Shown: positions 11,303 to 62,007, counted from the stretch's first letter. The stretch: DNA of 64,000 nt from an uncultured Clostridia bacterium (GCA_947625805.1 CANQPT010000005.1:10181-74180), one strand, 5' to 3'. The notes: generated from the letters alone by a model not told the origin. Translations and numbers: made by a program.

Positions 11303-11305
11303 AGT

Positions 11306-11530
11306 TTATCCTCTGCGCGACTCGATCAGCCTGTATATGGCCTCAGCCGAATTGAAATTTTCGGGCAAAAGATCCTCTACATCCAGCTCGATTTCGTAGT
11401 GATCCATCAGAGTCGACACGATAGCCACCAACTCAAAGGAATCAATGCGTTCCCGATCCACTAAATCGGTTTCGTTTTCAAAATCAATGCTCGGACAGAT
11501 CTCCGAGAGCAGTGCGATCAGTTCTTCCAT
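11306..11530 (-). CDS. D-alanyl-carrier-protein-like acyl carrier protein (DltC-like)
   Basis: 74 aa starting at ATG 11530 after GGAAAGGAG. Phosphopantetheine-site context RIDSFELVAIV. The upstream part of the 207-aa ORF overlaps the GNAT gene and is discarded. Confidence 0.8.
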   Translation of the reverse strand: MEELIALLSEICPSIDFENETDLVDRERIDSFELVAIVSTLMDHYEIELDVEDLLPENFNSAEAIYRLIESRRG

Positions 11531-32573: not shown

Positions 32574-32613
32574 CAAAAAACTTTCGTCCCTTTGATATCA
32601 AAGAGACGAAAGT
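32574..32613 (-). terminator. T-box leader terminator
   Basis: Minus strand ACTTTCGTCTCTTTGATATCAAAGGGACGAAAGTTTTTT. Its 5' arm can alternatively pair with the T-box sequence to form the antiterminator. Confidence 0.85.
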
Positions 32614-32855
32614 ATCATTGCAGTTCATTACTTCCGCGGTACCACTCTTTTTCATTCTTTCAAAAGAATGCGCCTTCGGTGCCTCATACACCCTGCTCTG
32701 TTACGGGAGCGCCCGTCTGCACCTACTCTGTTTTATTTCCGTACAGCCGCTCCACGGTGAGTTCCGCAATTCTTTCCGACGTCTTTCACCAACCGACGTC
32801 TCTCTGCAAGTAAAAGCCACTGCGTACTGATCCGCTTCATCGCGTTTTGCTATGT
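32574..32855 (-). promoter_or_regulatory. T-box riboswitch leader with Leu (CUC) specifier
   Basis: Read on the minus strand. Stem I elements GCGATGA (K-turn), AGTA, CAGAGAGA (AG bulge) and GGTGAAAG (distal loop). Specifier context GAA-CUC-A, with CUC at 32761-32759. Conserved T-box AAAGAGTGGTACCGCGGAAG (32652-32631), followed by the terminator. Confidence 0.88.
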
Positions 32856-41906: not shown

Positions 41907-42718
41907 AACCGATTGAACAAGCGCCTTTTTTGACCGAGATGCGTTTGAGCGCGGCAAATATGTACCGGCTGGGCTGGGACGAGCGCAACGGCGGAAACAT
42001 CTCGCTGCTGATCGATCGGGAACAAGCGGCGGAATATCTTGATCTGAACCAATCCCTGCGCACCATTCCCCTTGGTTTTTATGCGCCCGAACTTGCAGGA
42101 AAGATATTTTTGGTCACGGGGACAGGAAAGTATTTCAAAAACGTCGCAGACGACCCGGAAACCAATCTGGGCGTCATCCGCGTCGCCCCCAACGGGCGGG
42201 ATGCGGAACTGTTATGGGGCTACCGGGACGGCGGACGATTTACCTCCGAACTGCCGGCACATTTCATGAGCCATCGGGCAAGACTGGCGGTCGATGCGGG
42301 CAATCGCGTGATCATGCACTGCCATCCGACGCATACTCTTGCGATGAACTATGTGCATCCGTTAGAAGACAAGGCGTTCACCCACACCCTTTGGAAGATG
42401 TGCACAGAGTGCATCGTGGTCTTTCCGGACGGAGTCGGGGTACTGCCATGGATGCTATGCGGTACCAACGAGATCGGCGAGGCGACCGCAAAGAAGATGG
42501 CGGACTACCGTCTGGTCGTTTGGGGTATGCACGGCATTTACGGCGCAGGCAAAACCATGGACGAAACCTTTGGTCTGATCGAAACGGTGGAAAAAGCGGC
42601 GCAGATCTATATGCTGACCGCCCATCTGCCGCGCGTCAATACCATCACCGATCCGCAGCTGCGGGAACTGGCAGAATTTTTCGGCGTCAACTACCGCAAG
42701 GATTTTTTGGACGAATAA
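41903..42718 (+). CDS. rhaD: rhamnulose-1-phosphate aldolase
   Basis: 271-aa class II aldolase (GWDERNGGNIS, HCHPTH, WGMHGIY). ATGA overlap with rhaA. Confidence 0.92.
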   Translation: MKPIEQAPFLTEMRLSAANMYRLGWDERNGGNISLLIDREQAAEYLDLNQSLRTIPLGFYAPELAGKIFLVTGTGKYFKNVADDPETNLGVIRVAPNGRDAELLWGYRDGGRFTSELPAHFMSHRARLAVDAGNRVIMHCHPTHTLAMNYVHPLEDKAFTHTLWKMCTECIVVFPDGVGVLPWMLCGTNEIGEATAKKMADYRLVVWGMHGIYGAGKTMDETFGLIETVEKAAQIYMLTAHLPRVNTITDPQLRELAEFFGVNYRKDFLDE

Positions 42719-43461: not shown

Positions 43462-45834
43462 TCAATTATACAGATACGATTTTTCGTAACGCATGAGAAT
43501 GGTTGCAACCTGTGCGCGGGTGGCCGATCCCTTGGGATTCAGAATGACCTCACTGCCGGAGGTGGTGCCGGAGATCAGCTCTTCCGCATTGGCCCATGCA
43601 AGCGCCTCCTTGGCGTAGTTGGAAGTCTTGCCGCCGTCCGGGAAGGAATTCAGATTGGCGCTCTTACTGGTATCAAAGCCCTTATACTGCGTATAGCGGT
43701 AGAGAATGGCCGCCATCTGCTCACGGGTGATGTTGTTGGTGGGAGAGAACACGCCCTCGCCGGTACCGTTGACAATCTCGTTGGAGGAAGCCCAGATGAC
43801 TGCATCGGTATAATACTTGCCGGCGGCAACGTCCGTAAAGACGTTGTCCTGCGCATTCACTTCCGGGCTGCCCTCCATACGGTAGAGCACGCTGACCAGC
43901 ATACCGCGGTTCATGACGTTGTTGGGCGCAAAGGTAGTATCCGAGGTACCGTTGAACAACTCGTGGTTGACCGCATAGTCTACTGCCTCGTAGTACCACT
44001 TGTCGGTCTGAACGTCCGGGAAAGTATCGCCCACATTGACCAGTTTGGGCATGAGAGTATTGTCCGTCTGTTCTCCGCAGCGCTTGCAATGATGGGACTT
44101 ACTGCCCGGAATCTTGTCTGTTGCGGCCCTGTCAATGGTCCACTTGGTGTCGTAATCATGCGCAGGCAGATGATTCAGTTGACAAAAACCGCACACCTCG
44201 CAGACACGCTGCTCAATACCGACGTTGCAGTTCGGCTCGACGACGGTTTTCCACGCGCCGAAGGTATGTCCGTCCTTGCAGGCAGCGACCTGCGCAAAAG
44301 CCGTGGCAGAACCGCTCACCTGATCCTTGACCGTAAACGATCCGATATAGTTGGCGGCATAGGTGGAATTCCAGATACCGTCATTTGCAAAATGCACGGT
44401 ACGTTTGTTGGAACTTGCACCGGACTCGGCATAACCGAGCGTGCCCATACGAAGATATACCTTGTATTCGCCGGCTCTGGCGTCGCGCGGTACAGTCAAC
44501 TCGGCGATATAGTAACTCTTTAAGCCCGAGGTCCAATTACGCGCATCGATCTGGGAGGGAATGACAGTCTCCTCTCCGTCCGCGTCGACCACGATCAACT
44601 CTGTCGTCATCTTGGGAAGAAGATTGCCGAAGCCCGTATTCTCGACGGTACCTTTCAGCTTGACCGTTCCTCCCTTGCTGACCGACCCTGTGGTCTGTGC
44701 GGCGCGAATGACAAAGCGATAACCCATATGGTCATACATAAATTTCTGTAAAGACTGTCCGTAGTAGGCCGACACGTCCGGCATACCGGCAAAATCGTGG
44801 TTGTGACCCAGCGGGATCTTCTCAAGTTCTTCACAGGGATCCGGCCCATTGACAATGTTATAAAGATAATTCAAGTGAGTCTCATAGAGTTCTTCGACCA
44901 GCCAGTCCTCATAGACGGGAGAGCCGTTGGCCTTCATATACTCTGCCGTCGTGTACGCAAGTTCGCCGCCGTAGGGAACGTGCAGCTGCCACTGCAAAAT
45001 CTGTACTCCGTTGCTGCGGGAAGTCGAATTGGCGCTCCATGTGCCGTAGTCGCCGGAGGTGCCGAGATATCCGTGATTATACATACCCAGCCGATAGAGT
45101 TTGCTGTCTTTATCAAAGGGAAGCATCTTGAGCAGGCCGATGTCGATGGTTTTGGCATACTGGATCACAAAACCCATATGACGCACCTGAAGGGTAATGC
45201 TCTCGTCCAGATTGTCAAGATACATGTCTAAGATCTGATCGATGTATTCCTTGCCCTGATAGTCGGAGGAGTGCATCTCGCCCCAGGGACCGACCATACC
45301 GCATTCGACCGAGATCACGACGTCCTTGTATTCGTTGATGATCGGGATAAACTGCTCCATATGGTGTAAGAGCATATTGAAATCAGACGGCTCGACCCCG
45401 CAGAAACTTTCACTGGTGTAGCCAAAACTCGGGATAAGATAGACGCCCTGCTCGCGTGCCGCCTCAAAGGTGTCTCTGATGGCTTGAAGCGCTTCGTCGG
45501 TCAGCGGCAGATCCTCTCCGCCCACCTGGCTGGAATGATCCTCCGGATAACCGTCCTGTATACGGTCTGTACCCGCAGAAAAATCACCCAGGTCAAATTT
45601 CGGACAATACATACCGTACTCGCCGTAGTCGGTCATCCGTTCGGAATTTCCGTTCTTGCGCAAAGTGTACCAGCGGTACGGCGCCCAGCCGCGTGCCGGA
45701 TTGGTGTTGAATGTTTCCAGAGATTCTCCATAGTTGATGCCCGAGTCCACCCAGTCGTCTGCTCCAACGGCGCAGAAAGACGTAGTCCCGAACAGCATCA
45801 TCATGCAAAGAAGCACTGCAGTAAGTTTCTTCAT
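43462..45834 (-). CDS. secreted SLH-anchored protein with DUF4874/DUF4832-like (glycoside-hydrolase-like) N-terminal region and a Cys-rich insert
   Basis: Signal peptide. About 500-aa catalytic-like region. Cys-rich segment at residues 519-586. Three C-terminal SLH repeats (FPDVQTDKWYYEAVDYA, FTDVAAGKYYTDAVIWA, FPDGGKTSNYAKEALAWA). Confidence 0.8.
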   Translation of the reverse strand: MKKLTAVLLCMMMLFGTTSFCAVGADDWVDSGINYGESLETFNTNPARGWAPYRWYTLRKNGNSERMTDYGEYGMYCPKFDLGDFSAGTDRIQDGYPEDHSSQVGGEDLPLTDEALQAIRDTFEAAREQGVYLIPSFGYTSESFCGVEPSDFNMLLHHMEQFIPIINEYKDVVISVECGMVGPWGEMHSSDYQGKEYIDQILDMYLDNLDESITLQVRHMGFVIQYAKTIDIGLLKMLPFDKDSKLYRLGMYNHGYLGTSGDYGTWSANSTSRSNGVQILQWQLHVPYGGELAYTTAEYMKANGSPVYEDWLVEELYETHLNYLYNIVNGPDPCEELEKIPLGHNHDFAGMPDVSAYYGQSLQKFMYDHMGYRFVIRAAQTTGSVSKGGTVKLKGTVENTGFGNLLPKMTTELIVVDADGEETVIPSQIDARNWTSGLKSYYIAELTVPRDARAGEYKVYLRMGTLGYAESGASSNKRTVHFANDGIWNSTYAANYIGSFTVKDQVSGSATAFAQVAACKDGHTFGAWKTVVEPNCNVGIEQRVCEVCGFCQLNHLPAHDYDTKWTIDRAATDKIPGSKSHHCKRCGEQTDNTLMPKLVNVGDTFPDVQTDKWYYEAVDYAVNHELFNGTSDTTFAPNNVMNRGMLVSVLYRMEGSPEVNAQDNVFTDVAAGKYYTDAVIWASSNEIVNGTGEGVFSPTNNITREQMAAILYRYTQYKGFDTSKSANLNSFPDGGKTSNYAKEALAWANAEELISGTTSGSEVILNPKGSATRAQVATILMRYEKSYLYN

Positions 45835-49228: not shown

Positions 49229-49258
49229 CCCCCTGCGTCATATTGACGCAGGGGGTTT
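49229..49258 (+). terminator. intrinsic terminator
   Basis: CCCCCTGCGTCA / TAT / TGACGCAGGGGG followed by TTT. Confidence 0.75.
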
Positions 49259-49272
49259 CATATCCATGTAGC

Positions 49273-50844
49273 ATGGAACGATCAAGAAAATTTTTCTGGG
49301 ATGGACTGCTGCTCACGGCGACCGCGCTGATCATGCGCACGGTCGGCGTGATATTCAACGCCTATATTTCGGACAAGATGGGCGAAAGCGGCATGGGCTT
49401 GTTTGCGCTGGTCATGAGCGTATACAGTTTTGCCGTGACCTTCGCCACCAGCGGCATCAACCTCGCCGCCACCCGCATGACCGCAGAGGCCATGGGGCGA
49501 AACAGTCAGATCGAGATCCGGCAGGCAATGCGCCGGTGTATCGTGTACAGTCTTTTTTTCGGCACGGTCGGCGGCGTCGGGCTTTGGCTGGGCGCGGATT
49601 TCTTCGGCGGAGTGCTCATGGGAGATGCACGGACTGTGCCCTCTCTGCGCCTGCTCTCGTTCGGGCTTCCCTTTCTTTCGGTTTCCGCAGCGCTGAACGG
49701 ATACTTTACCGCCGTCCGGCGGGTGATCAAAAACGCGGCCTGTCAATTCTTTGAACAGATCTGCAAGATCGCACTGACCGTGCTCGGCTTTGCCCTTTTC
49801 CTGCCCCGAGGACTGGAATACGGCTGTATCGCGCTGGTGGGAGCGTCCATGTTCGGCGAGTGTGCGTCCTTTTTGCTTGCATTTATCCTCTATCTGCACG
49901 ATCTTCACAAGCACAATCGCAAGGACGGCGCACCCGGTGTGCATCTGACAGGTGCTCTCTGCCGGATTGCGCTGCCGGTGGCGGTCAGCGCCTATTTCCG
50001 CTCGGGTTTGGTCACCGCCGAGCACATGGCGATCCCGTGGGGCTTACGGCAGTTCGGCTCTTCGCCCGACGCGGCGCTTGCCACCTACGGCGTCATTCAA
50101 GGAATGGTACTGCCGGTCGTGCTCTATCCGTCCGCCTTTCTGAACGCCTTTTCCTCTCTGCTGGTGCCCGAGTTCGCGCAGGAGATCGCCGCTGGCAGAC
50201 GCCGCCGCACTGAACACATCGCCACCAAGGCGATCGGCGCTACCCTGCTTTTTTCGATCGGGATCGCGGGCATTATGATGGGCTATGCCGACGGACTCGG
50301 CATGGCGATCTACAAGAGCACGGAGGCTGGTTTTTATATCCGTCTGCTGGGCGCTCTGGTTCCAATCATGTACCTTGACGGCGTGGTGGACGGAATGCTC
50401 AAGGGTATGGGGTACCAGTTCTACTCAATGGTGGTCAACATCATTGACGCACTGCTGTCGCTTGTCATGGTGCTTGTGCTGGTCCCGCGCATGGGCGTAT
50501 ACGGCTATATCATTACGATCTTCGTTGCGGAAATTCTCAACTATTCCCTCAGCATCGTCAAACTGCTCGTCCATCTGCAGATCGATCTTCGTCTGGTCGC
50601 CCGCGTGGTCAAACCGATCTTAGCGATTATCGGTGCGACTACCGTCTGCCATATTCTCGGCAGTATCTTTCCCATCAACATCTGGCTGCAAATGTCCCTC
50701 TGTCTTGTGGTGTATGTGATCTTTCTTTTGTGCACGTTTGCGCTTACCCACAGCGACATCCGCTGGTTTTCCGGCATCGTATCCAAGGGGCGAATGCCGG
50801 CCTTTTACCGCAAACGCACGCGGGTATATCACATTTTTTACTGA
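49273..50844 (+). CDS. spoVB: MOP-superfamily flippase, stage V sporulation protein B-like
   Basis: About 14 TM helices. N-terminal region (LLLTATALIMRTVGVIFNAYISDKMGESGMGLFALV ... SGINLAATRMTAEA) resembles SpoVB/MurJ-like proteins. Start uncertain because the RBS is weak. Confidence 0.65.
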   Translation: MERSRKFFWDGLLLTATALIMRTVGVIFNAYISDKMGESGMGLFALVMSVYSFAVTFATSGINLAATRMTAEAMGRNSQIEIRQAMRRCIVYSLFFGTVGGVGLWLGADFFGGVLMGDARTVPSLRLLSFGLPFLSVSAALNGYFTAVRRVIKNAACQFFEQICKIALTVLGFALFLPRGLEYGCIALVGASMFGECASFLLAFILYLHDLHKHNRKDGAPGVHLTGALCRIALPVAVSAYFRSGLVTAEHMAIPWGLRQFGSSPDAALATYGVIQGMVLPVVLYPSAFLNAFSSLLVPEFAQEIAAGRRRRTEHIATKAIGATLLFSIGIAGIMMGYADGLGMAIYKSTEAGFYIRLLGALVPIMYLDGVVDGMLKGMGYQFYSMVVNIIDALLSLVMVLVLVPRMGVYGYIITIFVAEILNYSLSIVKLLVHLQIDLRLVARVVKPILAIIGATTVCHILGSIFPINIWLQMSLCLVVYVIFLLCTFALTHSDIRWFSGIVSKGRMPAFYRKRTRVYHIFY

Positions 50845-50847
50845 AAG

Positions 50848-50874
50848 AAAAAAGCTGCCTTTGGCGGCTTTTTT
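50848..50874. terminator. bidirectional terminator
   Basis: AAAAAAGCTGCC / TTT / GGCGGCTTTTTT between convergent genes. Confidence 0.8.
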
Positions 50875-50904
50875 CATATCTCCCGTCCGGCGGCTCAATT
50901 CCCC

Positions 50905-53094
50905 TTATGACAATTGATTCATCGAGCGCTGGGCTTCCACCAGACCGTGGTAAATCCCCCCGGCTTCCATCAACTGGTCGTGGGAGCCTTGCTCGGCGAT
51001 GGTGCCGTTGTCGATGACGATCAGACGGTTTGCATTGCGCAGGGTGGACAGGCGGTGGGCAATGGCGATGGTCGTACGCCCCTCCATCAGGCGAAGCAGT
51101 GCGTCCTGCAGCTGCTTTTCGGTCTCGGTGTCGAGGGAGGCGGTCGCCTCGTCAAGGATCAGGATCTTTGGGTCGTGCAGCAGTGCCCGCGCGATGGCGA
51201 TCCTCTGCCGTTCACCGCCCGAAAGGGTGTGCCCGCGCTCTCCGACCTTGGTGTTGTATCCGTCGGTCAGTTTGAGAATAAACGGATGTGCGCCCGCCGC
51301 CTTGGCGGCGCGGATGACCTCGTCGCGGGTAGCGGTCGGCTTTGCATATGCGATATTATCGTAGATGGTACCCGAGAACAAAAACGTTTCCTGGAGCACC
51401 ACGCCGATCTGCGAGCGCAGATGCTCTTCCGATATATCCTTGATGTTCACGCCGTCCACGCGGATGGTGCCGTTTTCTGCGTCGTACAGACGCATGACCA
51501 GATTGATCAGCGTACTTTTGCCCGCACCCGACTTGCCGACGATCCCGATCATCTCACCGGGCTGCACCGAAAAACTCACGTGGCGCAGCACGGTCTGCCC
51601 GTCGTTGTAGCCAAAAGAAACGTCGTCAAACTCGATCTTACCTTCAATCGGAAGATCAACCGGATGTTCGCTTGCCGGAACGTCAGACTTTTCGTCCACA
51701 ATCTCAAAGATTTTGACCACGCTGGTCAGAGCGTTTACCAGTCGGCGCGGGATCATGGCCATCCAGCGCAGCGGGCCGTACAACAGCCCCACATACGAGG
51801 AAAACTGGGTCATCTCTCCGAGGGTCATGCCGCCGTCCAGAATCTTTTGGCCTACGTAATAGAGCAAGAAGAACTCGCCAAGACCTGCGAACAGCGAAAT
51901 CAGCGGATTGATCACAGCCCAGATCTGCTCGTTTTTCATGGAAATGTCCCGCTGGTCGTCCACAGCTTTGTTGTAGCGCTCGATCTCGCGGTGCTCCATG
52001 CCGAAACTCTTGACCACACGCACGCCCTGATAGGTATCGTAGAGTATGGTCGAGGATTTGCGCTCGAAGGTCCACTGCTTGTTCCACAGACGGCGCATGG
52101 TGTTCCAGAACAGACGGTGAAAGAGCACCACAAAAGGAACGGGAACGATTACCAGCAACGCAAGTTTCCAGTCGTAGAAAACTACGATCGTTCCCACGCC
52201 GAACAGCAGAATAAGCTGTTGGGCAAGGTTGGTCAGGTCACTGACCAAAAACTGTTGCAAGACGTTGGTATCTTGTGTCACGCGGCCGATCAGCTCACCG
52301 GTCGGGCGCTTGGTCACCCCGGACAGAGAAAGCGCGTGAATCTTCTCAAACACGAGTTGCCGCAGGTTGACAACGACCGTCGTGCCCGCGATTGTGATAA
52401 ACACACTGCGTAATACCGAAACGATGACCGACAGTACTGTGATGCCCGCCATGGTAAGCACGATCAGCACAAAGGGTCGTAGCGCAGGCGGGGTCGCGGC
52501 GCGAACGTAATCGTCCACGAACACGCGTTGCACGTACGGGGCGAGCAACTCGATCAGGCTGGTCACGAAAAAGAGCAGCACGCCGATCGCCAAATACCCG
52601 CGCACGCCGCGGGTGAAGCCCCAAAGACGGCGCAAACTCTTCACGCGATTGGCACAGCGCAGGCATACGTCGCCCTCCCGGCGCAAAGTACGGCCGCACT
52701 TGGGACAGACCGCCACCAATTCGCGGCGGACGGCAAGGTCGGGCGCCCGCAGCATACTGTTGATATATCCGACGGCGGCGGCCGCCTCTCTGTGAGTGCG
52801 CATATCACCCGAAAAGAGCAAGTCGACCGTACCGTCCTTGTTCTCACATACCACGCTGTACGAGCCGACCAGATTCTCCATACGCAGTTCATTTGCCTGC
52901 GTAAGGTCGATCTGTCGTTCGCTTCCATCCTCATCGTAAAGATAGAGGCGCTGGTGGGTGGCGCACCCTATGCCCCGGGTGCGGGAAAATCGTTTCCCAT
53001 CACGGAGATTGTACGAAAAGGCGATCAAAAGGTCTTCGGGCGGGGTCTTCCCGCGATTTTTGAGCGCGGCAATCAAACTTTCACTTTTGGTCAT
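50905..53094 (-). CDS. ABC exporter (TMD+NBD) with ~145-aa N-terminal cytoplasmic domain ending in a Zn ribbon
   Basis: ATG 53094 after GAAGGTGA. CPKCGRTLRREGDVCLRC at 52654-52707 just before TM1. Walker A GKSGAGKST, signature LSGGERQR, Walker B ILILDEATAS. Confidence 0.88.
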   Translation of the reverse strand: MTKSESLIAALKNRGKTPPEDLLIAFSYNLRDGKRFSRTRGIGCATHQRLYLYDEDGSERQIDLTQANELRMENLVGSYSVVCENKDGTVDLLFSGDMRTHREAAAAVGYINSMLRAPDLAVRRELVAVCPKCGRTLRREGDVCLRCANRVKSLRRLWGFTRGVRGYLAIGVLLFFVTSLIELLAPYVQRVFVDDYVRAATPPALRPFVLIVLTMAGITVLSVIVSVLRSVFITIAGTTVVVNLRQLVFEKIHALSLSGVTKRPTGELIGRVTQDTNVLQQFLVSDLTNLAQQLILLFGVGTIVVFYDWKLALLVIVPVPFVVLFHRLFWNTMRRLWNKQWTFERKSSTILYDTYQGVRVVKSFGMEHREIERYNKAVDDQRDISMKNEQIWAVINPLISLFAGLGEFFLLYYVGQKILDGGMTLGEMTQFSSYVGLLYGPLRWMAMIPRRLVNALTSVVKIFEIVDEKSDVPASEHPVDLPIEGKIEFDDVSFGYNDGQTVLRHVSFSVQPGEMIGIVGKSGAGKSTLINLVMRLYDAENGTIRVDGVNIKDISEEHLRSQIGVVLQETFLFSGTIYDNIAYAKPTATRDEVIRAAKAAGAHPFILKLTDGYNTKVGERGHTLSGGERQRIAIARALLHDPKILILDEATASLDTETEKQLQDALLRLMEGRTTIAIAHRLSTLRNANRLIVIDNGTIAEQGSHDQLMEAGGIYHGLVEAQRSMNQLS

Positions 53095-53104
53095 GATTTC
53101 ACCT

Positions 53105-53617
53105 TCAGAGGTAGAGTTCCAACCTCTTGTAACTGGCGCGGTCAAGGGCGTCCACAGACGGGATCTCATAGCGGTTGCCGTCCACGTCGATCAAAAACAG
53201 TCGTCCGCCTCCGCATTTGAGAATGTTGCGGTAGATGTCCCGCATTCCGAAAGAAAGCGGTCCCTGATCGGTTTCTACGTTCACCTGCATAAATCCGTAA
53301 TTGTCTTTCATGCCCGTAATCCGCAGAATTTTCGGCGTGAAATACTTTTTGGAAAGTTCGTCTTAAAAAAGGGCAATCGCCTCGCCGTCAAAATCCTCGT
53401 CCAGCGATCGGATCAGACCGATCTCCTTCTTTTCCTCGTCCAGAACCGAAATGTATTCCCGCTCCATCTCAAATGGAAAATCCCGATGAAGATAGACCCG
53501 CGGGTAATGGGTTTTCCCCACGTCCAGTGTAAGAAAGCCGTCCACAGAGGAAAAACGAGCGTTTTCACGGCTTAAATATGTAATTTCAATGACGTCGGAT
53601 AGATTGATCTTACTCAT
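53105..53617 (-). pseudogene. DUF1854-like small protein gene interrupted by one in-frame TAA
   Basis: ORFs 53363..53635 and 53105..53311 share one frame. The joined translation reads ...DFDGEAIALF*DELSKKYFTPKILRITGMKDNYGFMQVNVETDQGP... ATG 53617 follows GGAGGA. The stop codon is at 53363-53365. Confidence 0.7.
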
Positions 53618-53618
53618 G

Positions 53619-55895
53619 TTAATCCTCCAGTACAATGTTTTTGAGGGCTTCCGCCTGCAGAGTGTAGAGCCTGTGGTAGACCCCCTCTTTGGCCAGCAAC
53701 TGCTCGTGCGTACCGCGCTCGCAGATTTTGCCGTCCTCGATCACGTAAAGTTCGTCCGAGCCACGCAGAGTGGACAGGCGGTGCGCGATGGTGATGGTAG
53801 TCCTGCCTTTGGACAGTTTGTCCAAGGCTTTCTGTATCTTCATCTCGGTTTCAGTGTCCATGGCCGAGGTCGCCTCGTCTAAGATCAGAATCTTCGGGTC
53901 GTGCAACAGGGCACGTGCAATGGATACCCGCTGTCGCTCGCCGCCCGACAGATCGCGGTAGCCGAAGCCGATCATGGTGTCGTACCCGTTATCCAATTTG
54001 ACGATAAAATCATGTGCGCCCGCAGTCTTGGCCGCCGCGATCACCTCCTCGTAGGTGGCGTCGGGACGGGCATAGCGGATATTCTCAAAAATCGATCCGT
54101 AAAAGAGATAGGTTTCCTGAGAAACGATGGCAATGTTTTTGCGCAGGTCGGCAAATGGCAGACGGCGGACGTTGATTCCGTCAATGCTGACGCTTCCCTC
54201 TTCTGCATCGTACAAACGCAGGATCAGATTGGCGATGGTACTCTTGCCGGCGCCCGTATGACCGACAATACCGATCTTGCCGCCGGCGGGCACTTCAAAG
54301 GACATATGATCGATGACCGTGCGGTTTTTGACATAGGAAAAACTGACGTCGTCAAAGCGAACGCTGCCCTTGCACTCGGATAGCGGAACCGGATCCACCG
54401 GCTCTGGCACGTCCGGAATTGCGTCCATGATCTCGGCCATGCGCTGGATCGAGTTCAGGCAGTTGGAAAACTGAAAGGTCATATCCGCTAAGGTGAACAG
54501 CGGCGAGGTCATAATACCGATATACGCGATAAAGGTGAGCAGAATTCCGTAACTTAAGCCCATCATGCCGTGAGCCACAAACCATCCGCCGAAGCCCCAT
54601 GCCAAAAACAGACTCATGCGCATGAGCAAGCTGGCAAGCGGAAAGGCAGTGGCATTGTAGATGGACGCCTCGCGATCCGCAAGCATTCTCTCCCGATTGA
54701 CGCGGCTGAAACGGTCCACCTCCTGCTTTTCCTTTGCAAATGCCTTGACCACACGCACGCCCGACAGCGAGTCGGCAAGTACGCCGGTCATGATCCTACG
54801 CTTGGTCCAGCGCTTGGCATGCAGTTTGCGGGAATGGTGAAACAGCCGGACATACACAAACAGCGCAGGCGGTATGGTGATGACCGACAGCAGAGTAAGA
54901 ACAGGATTGATTACGGTCATCAGAACCAGCACGGCGACAATCTGAACGATATTGATGATGTAATAAGGAAGTCCGTCGCAGAACAGCCAATAAATCGCCT
55001 CGGAGTCATTATCCACCTGGCTCATCAGGCCTCCGGTCTGCCTGCCGGAAAAGAAACTGACCGACAGTCGCTCGATGGAAGAAAAGATCACCTTGCGCAG
55101 GTCGCAGACCAGATTGTTGGACACGCGGGCAGTCACAATGCCGTTTCCGATGCTGACAAAGGTATTGAGCAGGCGGGTGACGACAATCAGGCCGATGACC
55201 AATAGCAACTGTCCGTAAAACGCGCCGTCCTCGCTGAGCACCTGATCAAAGTAAAAGCCGGAAGAAAGATAGGGCGCAAGAATGCTGAGCGCACTGGACA
55301 GGGTAAGGGTCAGCAGGATGGCGGCCACGCTGAACTTATACCGTGACAAGAAAAACCACATCTTTTTGATCAGTGCCGCTTTATCCATACAATGCGGACA
55401 GATCTTGCGATCCACGTCGGCGTAGCGCCTGCCGCAGCGGGGGCAATATTTGCTGTCCGCTTGGTTTTCCTCCGGCAGCGGACGTCCCCCTTTGAGCGCG
55501 TCAAAAAGACGGCACAGGGTGACAAGCGAATCCTTGACCGTAAAACTTCCGCCGCACAAAAGCGTGTACTGATCGCCCTTTTTTGCAACCAGCCTCAGGG
55601 TGGACACCTGCTCTTCCACACGCAAGTTTTCGATCTCATCCAAAGGATAAAACGCATATGCGATCTCGCGGTATGCACGTTCGCCCTTGCCGGTGATCGT
55701 CTTTCCGGCCGCACGCAGGGTCGTCGTTCCGCTCATGACGGCAATACCGTCCGCAGTCAGCAAAAGCGAGCAGTCGGTGCGTACCCCCTGTGCGTCCACG
55801 TCGCTGAGGGCATAGGCAATACTATCCTGCACCGAAAATCCTTTTTGTTCAAAGGCACAGAGCACTTCCGGCGAGATCCTGTCAATTTCTCTCAC
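53619..55895 (-). CDS. ABC exporter (TMD+NBD) with ~170-aa N-terminal cytoplasmic domain ending in a Zn ribbon
   Basis: GTG 55895 lies 8 nt after AAAGGAG (GTG 55913 is an alternative start). CPRCGRRYADVDRKICPHC at 55389-55445. Walker A GHTGAGKST, signature LSGGERQR, Walker B ILILDEATSA. Confidence 0.88.
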   Translation of the reverse strand: MREIDRISPEVLCAFEQKGFSVQDSIAYALSDVDAQGVRTDCSLLLTADGIAVMSGTTTLRAAGKTITGKGERAYREIAYAFYPLDEIENLRVEEQVSTLRLVAKKGDQYTLLCGGSFTVKDSLVTLCRLFDALKGGRPLPEENQADSKYCPRCGRRYADVDRKICPHCMDKAALIKKMWFFLSRYKFSVAAILLTLTLSSALSILAPYLSSGFYFDQVLSEDGAFYGQLLLVIGLIVVTRLLNTFVSIGNGIVTARVSNNLVCDLRKVIFSSIERLSVSFFSGRQTGGLMSQVDNDSEAIYWLFCDGLPYYIINIVQIVAVLVLMTVINPVLTLLSVITIPPALFVYVRLFHHSRKLHAKRWTKRRIMTGVLADSLSGVRVVKAFAKEKQEVDRFSRVNRERMLADREASIYNATAFPLASLLMRMSLFLAWGFGGWFVAHGMMGLSYGILLTFIAYIGIMTSPLFTLADMTFQFSNCLNSIQRMAEIMDAIPDVPEPVDPVPLSECKGSVRFDDVSFSYVKNRTVIDHMSFEVPAGGKIGIVGHTGAGKSTIANLILRLYDAEEGSVSIDGINVRRLPFADLRKNIAIVSQETYLFYGSIFENIRYARPDATYEEVIAAAKTAGAHDFIVKLDNGYDTMIGFGYRDLSGGERQRVSIARALLHDPKILILDEATSAMDTETEMKIQKALDKLSKGRTTITIAHRLSTLRGSDELYVIEDGKICERGTHEQLLAKEGVYHRLYTLQAEALKNIVLED

Positions 55896-55931
55896 GGTAT
55901 CCACTCCTTTCACGTTCTGATGATTCGTTGT

Positions 55932-55960
55932 ATTATATCATTCCGAGCAAGAAAAGTCAA
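55932..55960 (-). promoter_or_regulatory. sigma-A promoter of the ABC/DUF1854/ABC operon
   Basis: Minus strand TTGACT (55960-55955), 17-nt spacer, TATAAT (55937-55932). Confidence 0.7.
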
Positions 55961-55999: not shown

Positions 56000-56028
56000 T
56001 TTACTTTTCGTAAAACATATGGTATAAT
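56000..56028 (+). promoter_or_regulatory. sigma-A promoter with extended -10
   Basis: TTTACT (56000-56005), 17-nt spacer, TGgTATAAT (TATAAT at 56023-56028). Confidence 0.6.
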
Positions 56029-56088
56029 ATCGACATATCACATATGAAAAGCGGGTTCAGCCCGCAAATAACCAACGTGGAGAAAATC

Positions 56089-56826
56089 ATGAAAGCAATC
56101 GTTATGGCGGGTGGAAAGGGTACGCGGATCTCCGATCCGACCCATCCGATCCCGAAGGTATTACGGGAGGCAAACGGAAAGCCGCTGTTAGAATATGTTC
56201 TGAATACCATCAGCATGGTGGACAAAAGCGACGTTACAATTATCGTCGGATATATGCGGGAGCAAGTGATCAAACGTTTCCCCGGCTACCGATATGCCGT
56301 ACAGGAGCAACAACTCGGCACAGGGCATGCAGTCATGTGCGCCATTGAGGCATCTGACCTCGAGCACTACGACGGCGATGTGCTGGTGCTGTGCGGGGAC
56401 ACTCCGCTGATCTCGGCGCAAACCGTGCGGAAATTGGAAGAATTCCATAAAACGCAGGGCAACGCTTGCACCATTCTCTCCTGTGTCAGCGAAGAGGACG
56501 ACTCGCTGGGTCGGATTGTTCGGGAAAACGGAAAAGTTTGCGGCATCGTAGAAGCGGCGGATTGCACGCCCGAACAAAAGAAGATTACCGAAAAAAATTC
56601 CGGTCTGTGTCTTTTTGACTGCAAGAGCCTGTGCAGCACCATCAAAAAAATCACCAATGATAACAAAAAGGGCGAATATTATCTGACCGACGTGCCCAAA
56701 CTGCTGATTGCGGAGGACAAAAAAATAGATGCATACATCACCCCCGACAAGCGGGAATTACTGGGCGTCAACACGGCGGAAAATCTTGCACAGGTCGAGG
56801 CATTGCTCAGGCAGGAAGAAGTATAA
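56089..56826 (+). CDS. sugar-phosphate nucleotidyltransferase (GlmU N-terminal-domain-like, no acetyltransferase domain)
   Basis: ATG 56089 after GTGGAGAAA. Contains MKAIVMAGGKGTRI, QEQQLGTGHAV and VLCGDTPL. Confidence 0.85.
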   Translation: MKAIVMAGGKGTRISDPTHPIPKVLREANGKPLLEYVLNTISMVDKSDVTIIVGYMREQVIKRFPGYRYAVQEQQLGTGHAVMCAIEASDLEHYDGDVLVLCGDTPLISAQTVRKLEEFHKTQGNACTILSCVSEEDDSLGRIVRENGKVCGIVEAADCTPEQKKITEKNSGLCLFDCKSLCSTIKKITNDNKKGEYYLTDVPKLLIAEDKKIDAYITPDKRELLGVNTAENLAQVEALLRQEEV

Positions 56827-57335
56827 TGGCAGACAAAAAATCCATGGTCACTTTCGGAAGACAGTTCTTTGGCTACCGCAAGCAAGACGTCAATCGCTAT
56901 ATTGAACAGCGCGCCGCCGCCGCTCATCAGGCGGAGGAGGATTTTCGCGCAAAATTACAGGAGCGAACCGAGCAAGCGGACCAACTGCGTGCGGAAAACG
57001 CACGCATGACTGCCCTGATCGCCGAGAGCGACAAAAAAATCGTCGCACAGAAAAATCAGATCGACTCGCTCACAGAGCAACTCTCACAAAGCATACAAGC
57101 GCTGACCGAACTCAAAGGAGAACTCGATCGCTTGGACGAGCGGCTCAGCGCACTCGCCTGCGACACGCCGGCACCCAAAGCGAGCGCCGAGCCTGCTCCG
57201 GTAAAGCAAACGGAAACGGAGAGCGCGGAAAAAGAGCCTGCCGAAAAGGCAAAATCCTCCAAAGAACAGGACAGCAGTGCGATCGGCGCCGCGCTGCGCA
57301 GTCTGCGCAAAAAATTGTTGGATTTTCTGCAATAA
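56826..57335 (+). CDS. DivIVA-domain coiled-coil protein
   Basis: TAATG overlap with the upstream gene. N-terminal FGRQFFGYRKQDVNRYIEQ is the DivIVA-type motif. A long heptad-rich coiled coil and an acidic tail follow. Confidence 0.7.
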   Translation: MADKKSMVTFGRQFFGYRKQDVNRYIEQRAAAAHQAEEDFRAKLQERTEQADQLRAENARMTALIAESDKKIVAQKNQIDSLTEQLSQSIQALTELKGELDRLDERLSALACDTPAPKASAEPAPVKQTETESAEKEPAEKAKSSKEQDSSAIGAALRSLRKKLLDFLQ

Positions 57336-57768: not shown

Positions 57769-57803
57769 AACAGCGACCGCGTTGGCGGTCGCTGTTTCTT
57801 TTA
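57769..57803. terminator. terminator hairpin between convergent genes
   Basis: AACAGCGACCGC / GTTG / GCGGTCGCTGTT followed by TCTTTT. Confidence 0.8.
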
Positions 57804-59741
57804 ATCCAGTTCCTTTAGGCCGGTATACAACTCGTAATATCGTCCCTTCTGTTCCAACAGCCGGTCGTGGTTGCCGCGCTCGACGATCTCGCCGTGCTCC
57901 AGCACCATGATCGCATCCGCGTTGCGCACGGTAGACAGCCGGTGGGCGATCACAAAAGTGGTCCGGTCGCTCATCAGGCGATCCATACCGTGCTCAATAT
58001 GCCGCTCGGTACGGGTGTCCACTGAGGAGGTCGCCTCGTCCAGCACCAGAATGGGCGCACGGCTGAGTGCCGCACGGGCGATGTTGAGTAACTGCCGCTG
58101 TCCCTGGGACAGATTGGATCCGTCCCCCTCTAACATCGTATCATATCCATTGGCCAACCGCAGGATAAACGAATGGGCGCTGGCGGTCTTTGCCGCTTCA
58201 ATGACCTCATCGTCGGTAGCATCGGGTCTTCCGTAGCGGATATTCTCCATGACCGTTCCTGTGAACAGGTGGGTGTCCTGCAATACCATTGCGATATTGC
58301 GCCGTAAATGATCCCGGTCGAAATCCCGCAGGTCGATCCCGTCTATCGTGATGCTTCCCTCATTGATCTCATAAAAACGGTTGAGAAGATTGGTGACCGT
58401 GGTTTTACCCGCGCCGGTAGAGCCGACAAAAGCAATCTTCTGTCCCGGATGGGCGTAAAGACTGATGTCCTTTAAGATCACCTTGTCCTGCGTGTAGCCG
58501 AACGTCACGTGCTCAAGGGCCACGTCGCCGCGAATGGGCTGTGTAAGCCCCTTGCCCGCATAGGTCTCAGGCAAGGGCAAAAGCGCTTCTTTGTCCGGAG
58601 CCAACTTGGGCATATCCGCCTCGGTCGGATCCAGATCCATAATGCTGAACACGCGCTCAGCACCCGCAAGGGCCGCAAAAATGGTAGAGGTCTGCTGGGC
58701 AATGGTAGTGATCGGCTGGGAAAACCGACGGGAAACATTGCAGAAGAGGGTCAACCCGCCGATGTCAAAGCCGCGAAGCAGGCAGAGCAAACCGCCTACA
58801 CCTGCCGTGACCGCATAACTGATCTGCGACGTATTGCCCATGATCGGTCCCATGATACCGCCGTAGAACTGCGCATTGAACTGCTTGTCACGCATATCCT
58901 CATTGAGAAGATGGAATTCTTGCTCACAAACGCTCTCATGGTTGAATACCTTGACCACCTTTGAGCCGGTGACCGTTTCCTCGATATAGCCGTTGATGGC
59001 GCCGAGGGCGGATTGTTGCGCGCTGTAATACTTACTGCTCCGTTTTGCGATCGCACTGCCGCCCAGCAAAAAGAGCGGGATAAAGGCGACCGTGACCAGT
59101 GTAAGAATGATATTGGTATACACCATCATAACAAAGGTACCGACCAACATAACGGCGCCTGATACCAGGTTGACCACGGTATTGTTGAGCATCATGTCGA
59201 TGTTGTCGATGTCGTTGGTAAACCGGCTCATCAACTCACCGGTCGTGTTATTGTCAAAGAATCGCACCGGCAGGGTCTGCAATTTGTTGAACAGATCGTT
59301 GCGCAGCTTTTCCAGCGCGTTTTGAGATACGATCATCATCATGCGTGCCTGCAAGTACACCGAACCGATTTCAACCGCGTAAATCACGGCAAGAATCATA
59401 AGAATCATAGCCAGCGATACAATGCGCTGTTCGGGTGTTTTGGAAGGGTCTACCACCGTATTGATGACCGGCCGAAGCATATAAGAGCCGACAAGGGCGG
59501 CCACCGTGTTGAGCAGGACACAAACGACCGCGATGGTAAGGCGTGCCCGATAGGCTGCAATATACGACCACAGACGGGAGATGGTCCCGCCGAGGTTTTT
59601 GGGCTTTCCCTGGCCTCTTCTGTGTCGGGCGCCCGGGCCGCCTCCTCTCGGTCCGCCCGGGCCGGGCATACCGCCGCGGCCGGCAGGAGCCGCCTTGTTA
59701 TACAGTCTGCGGAGGTCTTCAAGACTTCTTTTGTGTGCCAT
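57801..59741 (-). CDS. heterodimeric ABC multidrug-type exporter subunit (consensus NBD) with G/P/R-rich N-terminal tail
   Basis: 646 aa. Walker A GSTGAGKTT, signature LSQGQRQ, Walker B ILVLDEATSS. N-terminus GRGGMPGPGGPRGGGPGARHRRGQG. Confidence 0.9.
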   Translation of the reverse strand: MAHKRSLEDLRRLYNKAAPAGRGGMPGPGGPRGGGPGARHRRGQGKPKNLGGTISRLWSYIAAYRARLTIAVVCVLLNTVAALVGSYMLRPVINTVVDPSKTPEQRIVSLAMILMILAVIYAVEIGSVYLQARMMMIVSQNALEKLRNDLFNKLQTLPVRFFDNNTTGELMSRFTNDIDNIDMMLNNTVVNLVSGAVMLVGTFVMMVYTNIILTLVTVAFIPLFLLGGSAIAKRSSKYYSAQQSALGAINGYIEETVTGSKVVKVFNHESVCEQEFHLLNEDMRDKQFNAQFYGGIMGPIMGNTSQISYAVTAGVGGLLCLLRGFDIGGLTLFCNVSRRFSQPITTIAQQTSTIFAALAGAERVFSIMDLDPTEADMPKLAPDKEALLPLPETYAGKGLTQPIRGDVALEHVTFGYTQDKVILKDISLYAHPGQKIAFVGSTGAGKTTVTNLLNRFYEINEGSITIDGIDLRDFDRDHLRRNIAMVLQDTHLFTGTVMENIRYGRPDATDDEVIEAAKTASAHSFILRLANGYDTMLEGDGSNLSQGQRQLLNIARAALSRAPILVLDEATSSVDTRTERHIEHGMDRLMSDRTTFVIAHRLSTVRNADAIMVLEHGEIVERGNHDRLLEQKGRYYELYTGLKELD

Positions 59742-59744
59742 GTC

Positions 59745-61520
59745 TTACGCCTCCTTCCGATCATTCTGAGAATAGTAAATTTCTTGATATTCAGTATTGC
59801 CGGCCAGCAACTGCTCGTGCGTTCCCACACCGGTAATCATACCGTCGTCCATGACAATGATCTGGTCGGCCTCCATGACCGAGGTAATCCGCTGGGCAAT
59901 GATGATCTTGGTGGAGTCGGAAAGTTCCTCGCGGAAAGCACGGCGAATCTGAGCCTCTGTGGCTGTGTCCACAGCACTTGTCGAGTCGTCAAGGATCAGA
60001 ATGCGCGGCTTTTTGAGCAAAGCTCTTGCAATGCACAACCGCTGTTTCTGTCCGCCGGAAACGTTGGTACCTCCCTGCTCCAGATCGCTTTGATAGCCCT
60101 TTGCAAAGGAAGTGATAAATTTATCCGCCTGCGCATACTCGGCAACCGTACGGATTTCCTCATCGGTCGCGTCCTCGTTTCCCCAGCGCAGATTTTCTTC
60201 GATGGTACCGGAAAAGAGCACGTTTTTCTGTAATACCATACCCACGCCTTCGCGCAGGTTGTAGAGCGAATAATCGCGTACGTCCACGCCGTCTACCAGT
60301 ACCGCGCCCTCGTCACAGTCGTACAGCCTTGCAATCAGCGATACCAGCGTGGTCTTGCCGCAACCGGTAGAGCCGATAATGCCCACAGTAGATCCGGCTT
60401 TAATTTTCAGATTGATCCGGTCAAGCGCCTTGCCTTCACTGTTTTTATAATAGCGGAAAGACACGTCACGGAACTCGACCTCACCCCGCTCTACCGTAAG
60501 GGAGGGATTGGCCGCGTTTGTATCGGTAATATCCACCTGTTCGTCGATCACCTCGCGGATGCGCTTGGCCGAGGCCAGAGCACGGGAGAACATGACGAAC
60601 ATCATGCTCACCATCATCAGCGACATTAAGATCTGGGTGATATAGGTCACAAAGGCAGACAGATCACCCGTACTCATACTGCCGCGATTGACCATGTTTC
60701 CGCCAAACCAGAGCACTGCAATGGTAGTTGCGCTCATACACAGGGTCATAAGCGGACTCATCATGATCATCATGCGCATTGCCTGCATACCGGAGTCCTT
60801 GAGGTCGGCGTTTGCCGCGCCGAACTTCTTTCGCTCGTGATCCTCGCGCACAAAACTCTTGACCACCCGCACGTTGGTGATGTTCTCCTGTACGGTGGAA
60901 TTGAGTTTGTCGATCTTGGTCTGGACTTTACTGAAAAGCGAGAAGCCCCTGCCTACAAAAAAGGAAATGCCAAGCAGCAAAAGGGGAATGGACACGCACA
61001 ACACCATGGTCAGCGACACATTGGTGGCCACCGCCATAATCAGTGCGCCGATCAGCATTCCGGGCGAGCGCAGCGCCATGCGCAGCAGCATATTGACAAA
61101 ATTCTGCATCTGCGTGATATCGTTGGTAAGCCTCGTGACCAGCGATCCGGTGGAGAATTTGTCGATATTGGCAAATGAAAAACTCTGTACCTTACGGTAC
61201 ACGTCTTCACGCAGATCGGCCGAAAAGCCCACAGAGGCTTTTGCGCCGAAATAAGCGCCCCCTACCCCGCCGATCATCATTAAGATGGCGGTCAGGATCA
61301 TGCCCACCATGATTGCCACAACGAACGGCGCATCCGCACCGAAAAGATCGTAAACACGTGCAAGCACGCCCGTTCTTTCCTGTCCGTCCACGCCGTAATC
61401 AATGATTGCTGCGAGTAGTTTGGGCATCACGACCTCACCGATGACCTCCACGATCATGCAGATCGGTCCTAAAATAAAATACGGTAAATAGGGCTTTATG
61501 TATCGAAACCACCGTCTCAT
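59745..61520 (-). CDS. heterodimeric ABC multidrug-type exporter subunit (degenerate NBD site)
   Basis: 591 aa. Walker A GSTGCGKTT, signature VSGGQKQR. Walker B is ILILDDSTSA, with Asp replacing the catalytic Glu as in LmrCD/TM287-288-type asymmetric pairs. Confidence 0.9.
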   Translation of the reverse strand: MRRWFRYIKPYLPYFILGPICMIVEVIGEVVMPKLLAAIIDYGVDGQERTGVLARVYDLFGADAPFVVAIMVGMILTAILMMIGGVGGAYFGAKASVGFSADLREDVYRKVQSFSFANIDKFSTGSLVTRLTNDITQMQNFVNMLLRMALRSPGMLIGALIMAVATNVSLTMVLCVSIPLLLLGISFFVGRGFSLFSKVQTKIDKLNSTVQENITNVRVVKSFVREDHERKKFGAANADLKDSGMQAMRMMIMMSPLMTLCMSATTIAVLWFGGNMVNRGSMSTGDLSAFVTYITQILMSLMMVSMMFVMFSRALASAKRIREVIDEQVDITDTNAANPSLTVERGEVEFRDVSFRYYKNSEGKALDRINLKIKAGSTVGIIGSTGCGKTTLVSLIARLYDCDEGAVLVDGVDVRDYSLYNLREGVGMVLQKNVLFSGTIEENLRWGNEDATDEEIRTVAEYAQADKFITSFAKGYQSDLEQGGTNVSGGQKQRLCIARALLKKPRILILDDSTSAVDTATEAQIRRAFREELSDSTKIIIAQRITSVMEADQIIVMDDGMITGVGTHEQLLAGNTEYQEIYYSQNDRKEA

Positions 61521-61521
61521 A

Positions 61522-62007
61522 TCAGAATTTTTCCTCCGGAGTGCGGCGGCAGCAACATCTTTCTTTGGGATCTTCGCCGGTCAGATTGTAATACATACGG
61601 TCCAAAAGATCCAGCAACTGCTTGATTTCCACGTTGCTGATCCCTTCTACGACCTGCTTGTCGAGAGAGTCGATCAGTTTTTTGGAAGAACGGTTGAACT
61701 CCTTGCCTTTGTCGGTCAGAAAAACCCGTACCGCTCTCTGGTCGTTTTCGTCCTGCTGGCGTCTGACATATCCTTCCTGCTCCATTTTGCGCAGGGTCAC
61801 GCTGATGGTCGGCGGCTTGAGATGGGTAAGATTTGCAAGATCAAGTTGGGTAACGCCGTCCTTGTGGGACAAATGAAAGAGCAAATGCCGATAACTTTCG
61901 TTCATTCCTTGGTCTTCTGCCAATCTGCGCATCCGGTTATGGAAGATCTTGGACAGATCATTGATTGCCATAAAGGGCTTTCTTTCCACAGGGGGTTGAT
62001 TTTTCAT
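61522..62007 (-). CDS. MarR family transcriptional regulator
   Basis: 161 aa. Winged HTH (LLFHLSHKDGVTQLDLANLTHLKPPTISVTLRKMEQEGYVRR). Its stop lies 1 nt before the ABC gene's start. Confidence 0.9.
   Translation of the reverse strand: MKNQPPVERKPFMAINDLSKIFHNRMRRLAEDQGMNESYRHLLFHLSHKDGVTQLDLANLTHLKPPTISVTLRKMEQEGYVRRQQDENDQRAVRVFLTDKGKEFNRSSKKLIDSLDKQVVEGISNVEIKQLLDLLDRMYYNLTGEDPKERCCCRRTPEEKF

Follow-up and report, generated by a model that had tools for sequence, protein, structure and literature searches.

A conserved three-gene operon of gut and rumen Clostridia that may encode a heterodimeric ABC transporter with a DUF1854 subunit

Introduction

What does a bacterium do with two ATP-binding cassette (ABC) half-transporters that are encoded on either side of a small gene of the DUF1854 family? 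The question is raised by an operon on the minus strand of a 64,000-nt stretch of DNA from an uncultured Clostridia bacterium (GCA_947625805.1 CANQPT010000005.1:10181-74180), which we call the window and along whose full length all coordinates are counted. From 55960 down to 50905, three co-directional genes encode a half-transporter (ABC-A), a DUF1854 protein, and a second half-transporter (ABC-B). Each half-transporter carries a soluble N-terminal extension that ends in a four-cysteine motif just before the membrane domain.

A preliminary description of this operon, made from the sequence, had treated it as an uncharacterised module in which the extensions would act as sensor or adaptor domains and the middle protein as their cytoplasmic partner. 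Here we re-examine this view in the light of related loci, profile searches, and predicted structures. On balance, we favor the interpretation that the three genes constitute a single operon devoted to a heterodimeric type IV (ABCB-like) ABC transporter, in which the DUF1854 protein would be a third subunit with an adaptor role. We also find that the DUF1854 gene of the window is interrupted by an in-frame stop codon, and we consider what this implies for the module in this organism.

Results

Conservation, variants, and fusions of the module

A species-level scan, with one genome per species, found a DUF1854 relative in at least 515 genomes; the locus counts given below are from the best 80 loci. 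All 80 are from Clostridia of gut and rumen, and in all of them, wherever the contig allows, an A-type ABC gene, a DUF1854 gene, and a B-type ABC gene follow one another in this order on one strand. The neighborhood check proposed in the preliminary description thus comes out in favor of a three-gene arrangement that is conserved across Clostridia. Each flanking gene family is confined to at most 20 of the 80 loci (25%), which rules out a conserved fourth gene and leads us to regard the module as self-contained; the neighbors that do recur are a GH106-like protein, SecA, a PBP5-type carboxypeptidase, and unknown proteins.

A DUF1854 profile search of 1.84 billion cluster representatives (50% identity) yielded 1,948 DUF1854 clusters, and five of the cluster representatives are fusions of 935-1013 aa in which the extension, the membrane domain, the ATPase domain, and DUF1854 are joined in a single protein. 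The module is assembled in several ways. In L083, a fused A-type gene is followed by a B-type ABC gene, and in L084 another gene starts 10 nt past the fusion. L081 (102-4230) has a lone fused ABC::DUF1854 gene of 935 aa and no second ABC; after it comes a subtilisin-family Peptidase_S8 gene, perhaps a sign that the substrate there is related to peptides. In other lineages, represented by L086 and L087, the module consists of two genes, one for an ABC protein and one for DUF1854. The modules of L081-L087 have the same extension, zinc ribbon, exporter core, and DUF1854 as the window, in the same order; they differ from it in having a single ABC (L086, L087), a single fusion (L081), or a fused A-type gene plus a B-type gene (L083), whereas the window has three separate genes.

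Across the two-gene, three-gene, and fused forms, every ABC protein next to or fused with DUF1854 has a CxxC-x10/11-CxxC motif before the first transmembrane helix (TM1). Because this co-occurrence is constant across the variants, we consider the extension, the ribbon, and DUF1854 to be one evolutionary unit, of which the Clostridial three-gene form is, judging by sequence, the heterodimeric variant. The pattern also agrees with the earlier proposal that the middle protein is a dedicated cytoplasmic partner: DUF1854 always comes directly after an extension-bearing ABC gene and is fused to it in the five representatives.

The two half-transporters

As the preliminary description held, ABC-A and ABC-B are full half-transporters. 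In both, Pfam finds ABC_membrane followed by ABC_tran, at E-values of 4e-34 and 7e-32 in ABC-A and of 5e-46 and 6e-37 in ABC-B. The AlphaFold model of ABC-B (mean pLDDT 78) has the type IV fold, and in Foldseek comparisons with TM287/288, TmrAB, Atm1, ABCB10, and Sav1866 it reaches target-normalised TM-scores of at least 0.8. A 729-aa product identical to ABC-B is present in a public protein collection (P0121). For ABC-A, the longest open reading frame (ORF; 53619-55913) begins at a GTG at 55913. AAAGGAG at 55910-55904 sits 8 nt before a second GTG at 55895, and the orthologs start aligning at residues 7-10 of the long ORF; GTG 55895 is likely to be the true start.

Both proteins have a canonical Walker A, an LSGGE signature, and a Walker B with its catalytic glutamate, and their H-loop reads IAHRLST in the translations. 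Walker A, the catalytic glutamate, and the H-loop histidine are conserved in all 65 ABC-A and all 53 ABC-B orthologs, and the LSGGE signature in 65 of 65 and 50 of 53, respectively. From these motifs both ATP sites appear catalytically competent, as had been suggested for the two nucleotide-binding domains.

ABC-A and ABC-B are about 39% identical over their core. Each matches its counterpart in L083 best, ABC-A with 560 bits to the A-type protein and ABC-B with 533 bits to the B-type protein, compared to about 420 bits between A and B. Because each half is nearer to its counterpart at a distant locus than to its own partner, the split between A and B appears to be old, as would be expected of an obligate heterodimer.

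N-terminal extensions and zinc ribbons

PDB exporters match ABC-B only from about residue 149, in line with the earlier view that an extra soluble domain precedes TM1 in each half. When the profiles of the two extensions were compared with HHalign, they aligned over 152 columns with a probability of 99.75% and an E-value of 3e-27, and with the ribbon removed the E-value was still 7.5e-12. By this profile comparison the two extensions are homologous, and the earlier claim that they are paralogous stands. In the same way, DUF1854 proved not to be detectably related to either extension, the HHalign probability being under 1% in each case.

In the AlphaFold model, the ABC-B extension consists of a helix (residues 3-13), seven strands (24-97), and a second helix (101-116), with a block pLDDT of 72-87 over residues 1-120. 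Two short cysteine-bearing hairpins follow, and then an elbow helix and TM1. This topology suggests that the extensions are PH-like beta-sandwiches with a C-terminal helix, the kind of domain that the preliminary description had proposed. Pfam assigns no family to the beta part of either extension, and across a set of 58 extensions zinc-ribbon families alone recur (weak Zn_Ribbon_1 matches in 24 of the 58), next to a single bPH_3 match. When ABC-B residues 1-197 were compared with a collection of 5.8 billion proteins, nothing was returned at E <= 1e-3, because the domain is too divergent for a single-sequence search.

The two CxxC knuckles at the end of each extension lie directly before TM1, exactly where they had been located previously. 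All four cysteines are present in 65 of 65 ABC-A orthologs, and they are kept in 96% of the 53 ABC-B orthologs; the motif, with its conserved spacing, is also found in distant members of the family. We therefore refer to these motifs as zinc ribbons, that is, as predicted metal sites. Within the ABC-B extension, residues 78 and 94 (52813-52863, minus strand) fall in columns that hold cysteine in about three quarters of the orthologs, and the window protein has Ser and Phe there. These columns may represent an extra cysteine pair that was lost in the window lineage.

The DUF1854 protein

With its stop codon masked as X, the product of the middle gene matches the Pfam DUF1854 family with an E-value of 1.2e-31 and 109.7 bits (cut-off 26.8), over positions 1-128 of the 130-position profile. 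Intact homologs have 170-230 aa, align over both halves, and are up to 74% identical to the window protein. A confident AlphaFold model (pLDDT 87.6, but with a pTM of only 0.56) shows two beta-rich halves, with strands at residues 20-71 and 96-152, and a C-terminal helix. An origin by internal duplication is not supported, the HHalign probability between the N-terminal and C-terminal halves being 1.5%.

A sequence profile search of the PDB with DUF1854 found no solved relative. Foldseek returned no PDB match to the model at E <= 1e-3, the top entry being the tandem OB domains of HIN-200 proteins (E 0.03, TM-score 0.2), and no match among viral models; a tblastn search of plasmid records was likewise without a match. 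The protein ends in a strongly conserved C-terminal tail, [E/D]-[L/I/M]-[Y/F]-[L/I/V], which reads ELYL in 104 of the 120 homologs listed and which is still the end of the protein in the ABC::DUF1854 fusions.

Relationship to a cyanophycin-associated family

The top NCBIfam matches are NF052233 ("cyanophycin metabolism-associated ABC transporter") for both ABC-A and ABC-B and NF052234 for the DUF1854 protein. NF052233 has 766 positions and aligns from ABC-B residue 19, so that the family model includes the N-terminal extension. In two beta-proteobacteria, cofitness links DUF1854 genes to cphA, cphA', and an ABC transporter (Price et al., bioRxiv 10.1101/072470). The same study noted DUF1854-ABC fusions, proposed that DUF1854 is a transporter subunit, and interpreted the fitness data as efflux (Price et al., bioRxiv 10.1101/072470). 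Our search of the literature on DUF1854, and on cyanophycin synthetase together with ABC transporters, found nothing on the module beyond this work.

The cyanophycin-associated system and the window agree in that a DUF1854 gene directly follows an ABC gene and in that the ABC family model includes an N-terminal extension. They differ in that the cphA-linked system is described with a single ABC gene (Price et al.), whereas two old paralogs bracket DUF1854 in the window, and in the cphA gene itself, which is absent near the window operon and at the related loci examined. The operon thus appears to be a heterodimeric, cphA-independent Clostridial variant of a known, biochemically uncharacterised family. 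The preliminary description knew of no experimental account of the substrate or role of this architecture, yet the two NCBIfam models and Price et al. already describe its relatives. Its interpretation is largely sound, but it overstates how unknown the module is.

An in-frame stop codon in the DUF1854 gene

The preliminary description overlooked an in-frame TAA that follows codon 84 of 170 in the middle gene, because of which the window offers no uninterrupted DUF1854 frame of about 170 aa. The stop falls in a variable alignment column, in which homologs have D, Q, A, N, Y, K, R, or E, and in the AlphaFold model it lies in the linker between the two halves of the protein. Recoding of TAA was ruled out: both flanking ABC genes end in TAA, and the sole tRNA in the window, an ordinary tRNA-Gln with anticodon CTG, also counts against it. 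A one-base slip in the T-run gives a frame that is not conserved.

The module could be decaying in this organism, with the stop being a true nonsense mutation and the operon being left without a working complex. We place this reading a little short of an even chance. Besides the stop itself, it is favored by the fact that DUF1854 is intact in 80 of 80 related loci and in the 120 homologs listed. In addition, the C-terminal half that would be lost past the stop holds most of the invariant residues as well as the conserved tail, and Met103, the next start codon, is without a good ribosome-binding site. This picture of decay contrasts with the state of the remaining sequence: the conservation of both halves of DUF1854 is on a par with that of the genes on either side (74% identity to the closest homolog, versus 69% for ABC-A and ABC-B), and both ABC genes are fully intact. 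Because of this, either the damage is very recent or the base was miscalled or misassembled. The Gln codon CAA would turn into TAA by a single C-to-T change, and a close homolog has Gln at that column. An exact-pattern scan of metagenome contigs around the stop gave 0 matches and thus no second strain copy for comparison. With a nonsense codon after residue 84, then, either a recent mutation has crippled the complex or the assembly is wrong at this base.

Operon layout and transcription signals

The features of the operon are collected in Table 1. The gap between the ABC-A stop and the DUF1854 ATG (53617) is 1 nt, and that between the end of the DUF1854 gene (53105) and the ABC-B ATG (53094) is 10 nt. 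For the three tightly packed genes of the preliminary description, the coordinates are exact but the middle gene is not intact, and because of its in-frame TAA the picture of 1-nt and 10-nt gaps is valid only with read-through of the stop. The single consensus promoter that had been placed in front of ABC-A is the top-scoring match of the region; promoter-like sites as a class are not enriched over the region, with 6 observed versus 4.1 expected from shuffles. About 20 nt separate the end of the -10 element from the ABC-A ribosome-binding site. With a leader of about 20 nt and no Rfam family in the region, a leader RNA before ABC-A was ruled out, and the Rfam scan found no match in or near the operon.

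Table 1. Positions of the operon's features, in coordinates of the 64,000-nt window, with the evidence for each
Feature	Coordinates	Strand	Evidence
Sigma-70-like promoter, TTGACT-17-TATAAT with TG extension	55932-55960	-	11/12 consensus matches
ABC-A half-transporter, 758 aa: N-terminal extension, six-helix membrane domain, ATPase domain	53619-55895	-	Pfam
Cytoplasmic N-terminal extension of ABC-A (about 170 aa, preceding TM1)	55341-55895	-	HHalign homology to ABC-B extension
Predicted zinc ribbon of ABC-A, CPRC-x11-CPHC directly before TM1	55389-55445	-	Cys conservation; weak Pfam DZR and Zn_ribbon matches
DUF1854 (PF08909) gene, 170 codons, interrupted by in-frame stop	53105-53617	-	Pfam
In-frame TAA after codon 84 of 170 in DUF1854	53363-53365	-	Translation; homolog alignment
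ABC-B half-transporter, 729 aa: N-terminal extension, membrane domain, ATPase domain	50905-53094	-	Pfam
N-terminal extension of ABC-B, predicted PH-like topology followed by ribbon	52645-53094	-	AlphaFold secondary structure
Predicted zinc ribbon of ABC-B, CPKC-x10-CLRC directly before TM1	52654-52707	-	Cys conservation
Weak hairpin and T-run 3' of the ABC-B stop	50847-50875	-	Fold versus shuffles, z = -0.9

The hairpin 3' of ABC-B, which is no more stable than its shuffled versions, is only suggestive of a terminator; it could possibly work in both directions and be shared with the convergent gene that ends at 50844. That gene (49243-50844, plus strand), whose stop lies inside the weak shared hairpin region, encodes a 533-aa membrane protein of flippase type (MurJ/SpoVB-like) with Polysacc_synt and MatE domains. 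At the other end of the operon, a second promoter-like site (56000-56028, plus strand; TTTACT-17-TG-extended TATAAT, 10/12) points away from the operon promoter, and the two stand back to back within about 70 nt. It lies just 5' of a nucleotidyl-transferase gene (56044-56826, plus strand; Pfam NTP_transf_3 and NTP_transferase). The stop of this gene is overlapped by the start of the next one (56826-57335, plus strand), which encodes a Glu/Gln/Ala-rich protein of 169 aa with a coiled-coil look and no Pfam match.

Comparison with characterised transporters

The ABC-A/ABC-B pair resembles the heterodimers TM287/288, TmrAB, and BmrCD in its fold (target-normalised TM-scores of at least 0.8 for the ABC-B model), in sequence (30-33% identity), and in having half-transporter genes side by side. 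Those pumps have one degenerate ATP site. ABC-A/ABC-B, unlike them, has the consensus in both ATP sites and so falls outside the degenerate-site class of TM287/288, and the three pumps are without both the PH-like and ribbon extension and a DUF1854 partner. The window itself has a second heterodimeric ABC pair (646 aa and 591 aa), which is immediately preceded by a gene for a MarR-family regulator (61522-62007; the whole cluster spans 57801-62007, minus strand). In its 591-aa protein, Asp replaces the catalytic glutamate and Gln the H-loop histidine, and the signature of the partner reads LSQGQ; the earlier remark that the pair at 57801-61520 has a degenerate nucleotide-binding site is therefore correct. 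By its sequence, this MarR-linked pair appears to be a typical drug-efflux arrangement with one degenerate ATP site.

PCAT1 and HlyB are similar to ABC-B in that a soluble cytoplasmic domain of about 130-150 aa precedes the membrane domain. Their N-terminal domains bind cargo and provide a working precedent for cargo recruitment. In these proteins the domain is a C39 peptidase or C39-like, which the window extensions are not: Pfam Peptidase_C39 has no match in ABC-A, in ABC-B, or in the 58 extensions, and the window proteins score below the cut-offs of the NCBIfam bacteriocin and HlyB models. The window operon, unlike the PCAT1 and HlyB systems, is also without membrane-fusion or outer-membrane partner genes. 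IrtAB offers another point of comparison, as one half of this heterodimeric type IV transporter has a cytoplasmic N-terminal accessory domain. The IrtA domain is a FAD-binding reductase, and IrtAB imports siderophores. In the window, both halves carry the extension rather than only one, and the Pfam searches brought up neither a flavin nor a reductase signature.

Other genes in the window

Three further regions of the window deserve mention. A T-box leader (32599-32849, minus strand; Rfam RF00230, 124 bits) lies upstream of a thiamine diphosphate (TPP)-dependent enzyme of the acetolactate-synthase type (30848-32545), with a dihydroxy-acid dehydratase gene (27623-29293) and an isopropylmalate-synthase-like gene (23161-24822) further downstream. 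Together, they look like a T-box-controlled branched-chain amino-acid cluster. At 9764-13812 (minus strand), two ORFs share sequence in different frames, 11306-11929 without a Pfam match and 11484-12389 with a GNAT domain, and on either side of them lie genes for an MBOAT-family acyltransferase (9764-11302) and an AMP-binding enzyme (12292-13812); the overlap could be a frameshift or merely a case of overlapping calls. Finally, DUF4874, DUF4832, and S-layer homology repeats are combined in a 790-aa protein (43462-45834, minus strand) that is probably a cell-surface glycan-active protein. Genes for a rhamnose isomerase (40665-41906) and a class II aldolase (41903-42718) are found nearby.

Discussion

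How might the three proteins work together? We infer that ABC-A, ABC-B, and the DUF1854 protein form one complex. In such a complex, each half would start with a PH-like beta-sandwich in the cytoplasm that is tied to the membrane domain by its four-cysteine zinc ribbon, and the DUF1854 protein would dock at the cytoplasmic face, near the ATPase domain of ABC-A and the N-terminal domains. The N-terminal domains and DUF1854 would then act as a receptor or adaptor that captures a product made in the cytoplasm, for example a peptide-like compound or an amino-acid polymer, and hands it to the exporter, by which it would be moved outward. By analogy with the genetic link between the beta-proteobacterial relatives and cyanophycin-synthetase-like genes, capture and hand-over of a cytoplasmic product is the most likely job of these parts; the idea that the product may be a polymer comes only from distant relatives.

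Several of our observations weigh against this interpretation. The window proteins score well below the equivalog cut-offs of the family models: ABC-A reaches 530 bits and ABC-B 545 bits against 880 for NF052233, and DUF1854 reaches 61 bits against 150 for NF052234, for which ten more distant DUF1854 proteins score 52-119 bits. Function cannot be transferred from these models. The window ORFs that were scanned include no cphA or other polymer synthetase, nor is one present in the roughly 8 kb of flank covered at the related loci, and the conserved flank families of the 80 loci likewise show no association with cphA or cphA'. The PH-like assignment is read from the topology of a predicted model, and among the 58 extensions a single one has a Pfam bPH_3 match (E 0.002). 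The interrupted DUF1854 gene means that the module may fail to work in this organism. Lastly, some transporters of the type IV fold import their substrates (IrtAB, YbtPQ), and because of this the export direction of ABC-A/ABC-B is assumed.

Import is accordingly one alternative to consider: the pair could be an IrtAB-like importer on an exporter fold, with the N-terminal domains and DUF1854 as the parts that would receive or process what is brought in. IrtA itself shows that a cytoplasmic N-terminal domain on a type IV fold can serve siderophore import, and the direction of transport cannot be read from a sequence. Set against this, neither the extensions nor DUF1854 show a redox or enzyme domain in Pfam, the conserved neighbors include no gene that encodes a binding protein or is linked to uptake, and the beta-proteobacterial data are read as efflux (Price et al.), so that import seems to us very improbable. 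We give slightly more credit, while still considering it quite improbable, to the simpler notion that ABC-A/ABC-B is an ordinary multidrug or lipid exporter pair whose N-terminal domains and DUF1854 are structural additions that do not influence which substrate is chosen. In its core the pair is indeed a standard type IV exporter, with an identity of about 30-33% to Sav1866, TM287/288, and TmrAB, and NCBIfam MsbA-like models give strong sub-threshold matches. However, the strict co-occurrence of the extension, the ribbon, and DUF1854 across distant lineages, together with the ABC fusions, argues for a specialised machine, and the window already has a standard drug-type pair, the MarR-linked one with the degenerate site at 57801-62007.

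A more serious alternative, which we nevertheless think unlikely, is that DUF1854 and the N-terminal domains regulate the pump, either by holding the ATPase domains apart or by sensing a cytoplasmic signal, and thereby make it an exporter on demand. The fusions tether DUF1854 to the C-terminus of the ATPase domain, a position suited to a brake on ATPase-domain closure, and PH-like domains commonly bind small ligands or lipids. Moreover, with the consensus in both ATP sites, the built-in asymmetry of many heterodimeric exporters is absent, which makes control from outside plausible. On the other side, the sequence gives no basis for inferring a regulator or a sensor ligand, and beta-proteobacterial DUF1854 mutants share the phenotype of transporter and synthetase mutants (Price et al.), which fits a required subunit better than a brake.

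Returning to the capture and hand-over of a cytoplasmic product, we can speculate one step further, in a form that we hold only tentatively and regard as somewhat unlikely. The DUF1854-linked transporters could be a distinct and widespread class of ABC transporters in which the N-terminal domains and a two-barrel subunit feed a cytoplasmic polymer or peptide to the exporter, and the Clostridial heterodimer could then be an unrecognised route of secretion or envelope building, with a substrate unrelated to cyanophycin.

What was already known is a family loosely tied to the export of an amino-acid polymer; what is new here is its probably heterodimeric Clostridial variant. The module is common in Clostridia of the gut and rumen, where public annotation describes its genes only as "ABC transporter ATP-binding protein" and "DUF1854 domain-containing protein", and for the genome at hand there is the practical point that the DUF1854 gene should be annotated as interrupted. 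Given that no relative of the DUF1854 fold has been solved, much could be learned from a structure. That the extension, the ribbon, and DUF1854 travel together, and that DUF1854 can be fused to the ATPase domain, leads to a testable picture of a three-part transporter, and the Clostridial genes are now linked to the beta-proteobacterial fitness data, the sole functional evidence at hand. Should the substrate prove to be a polymer made in the cytoplasm, the module would represent a new export route in abundant gut anaerobes.

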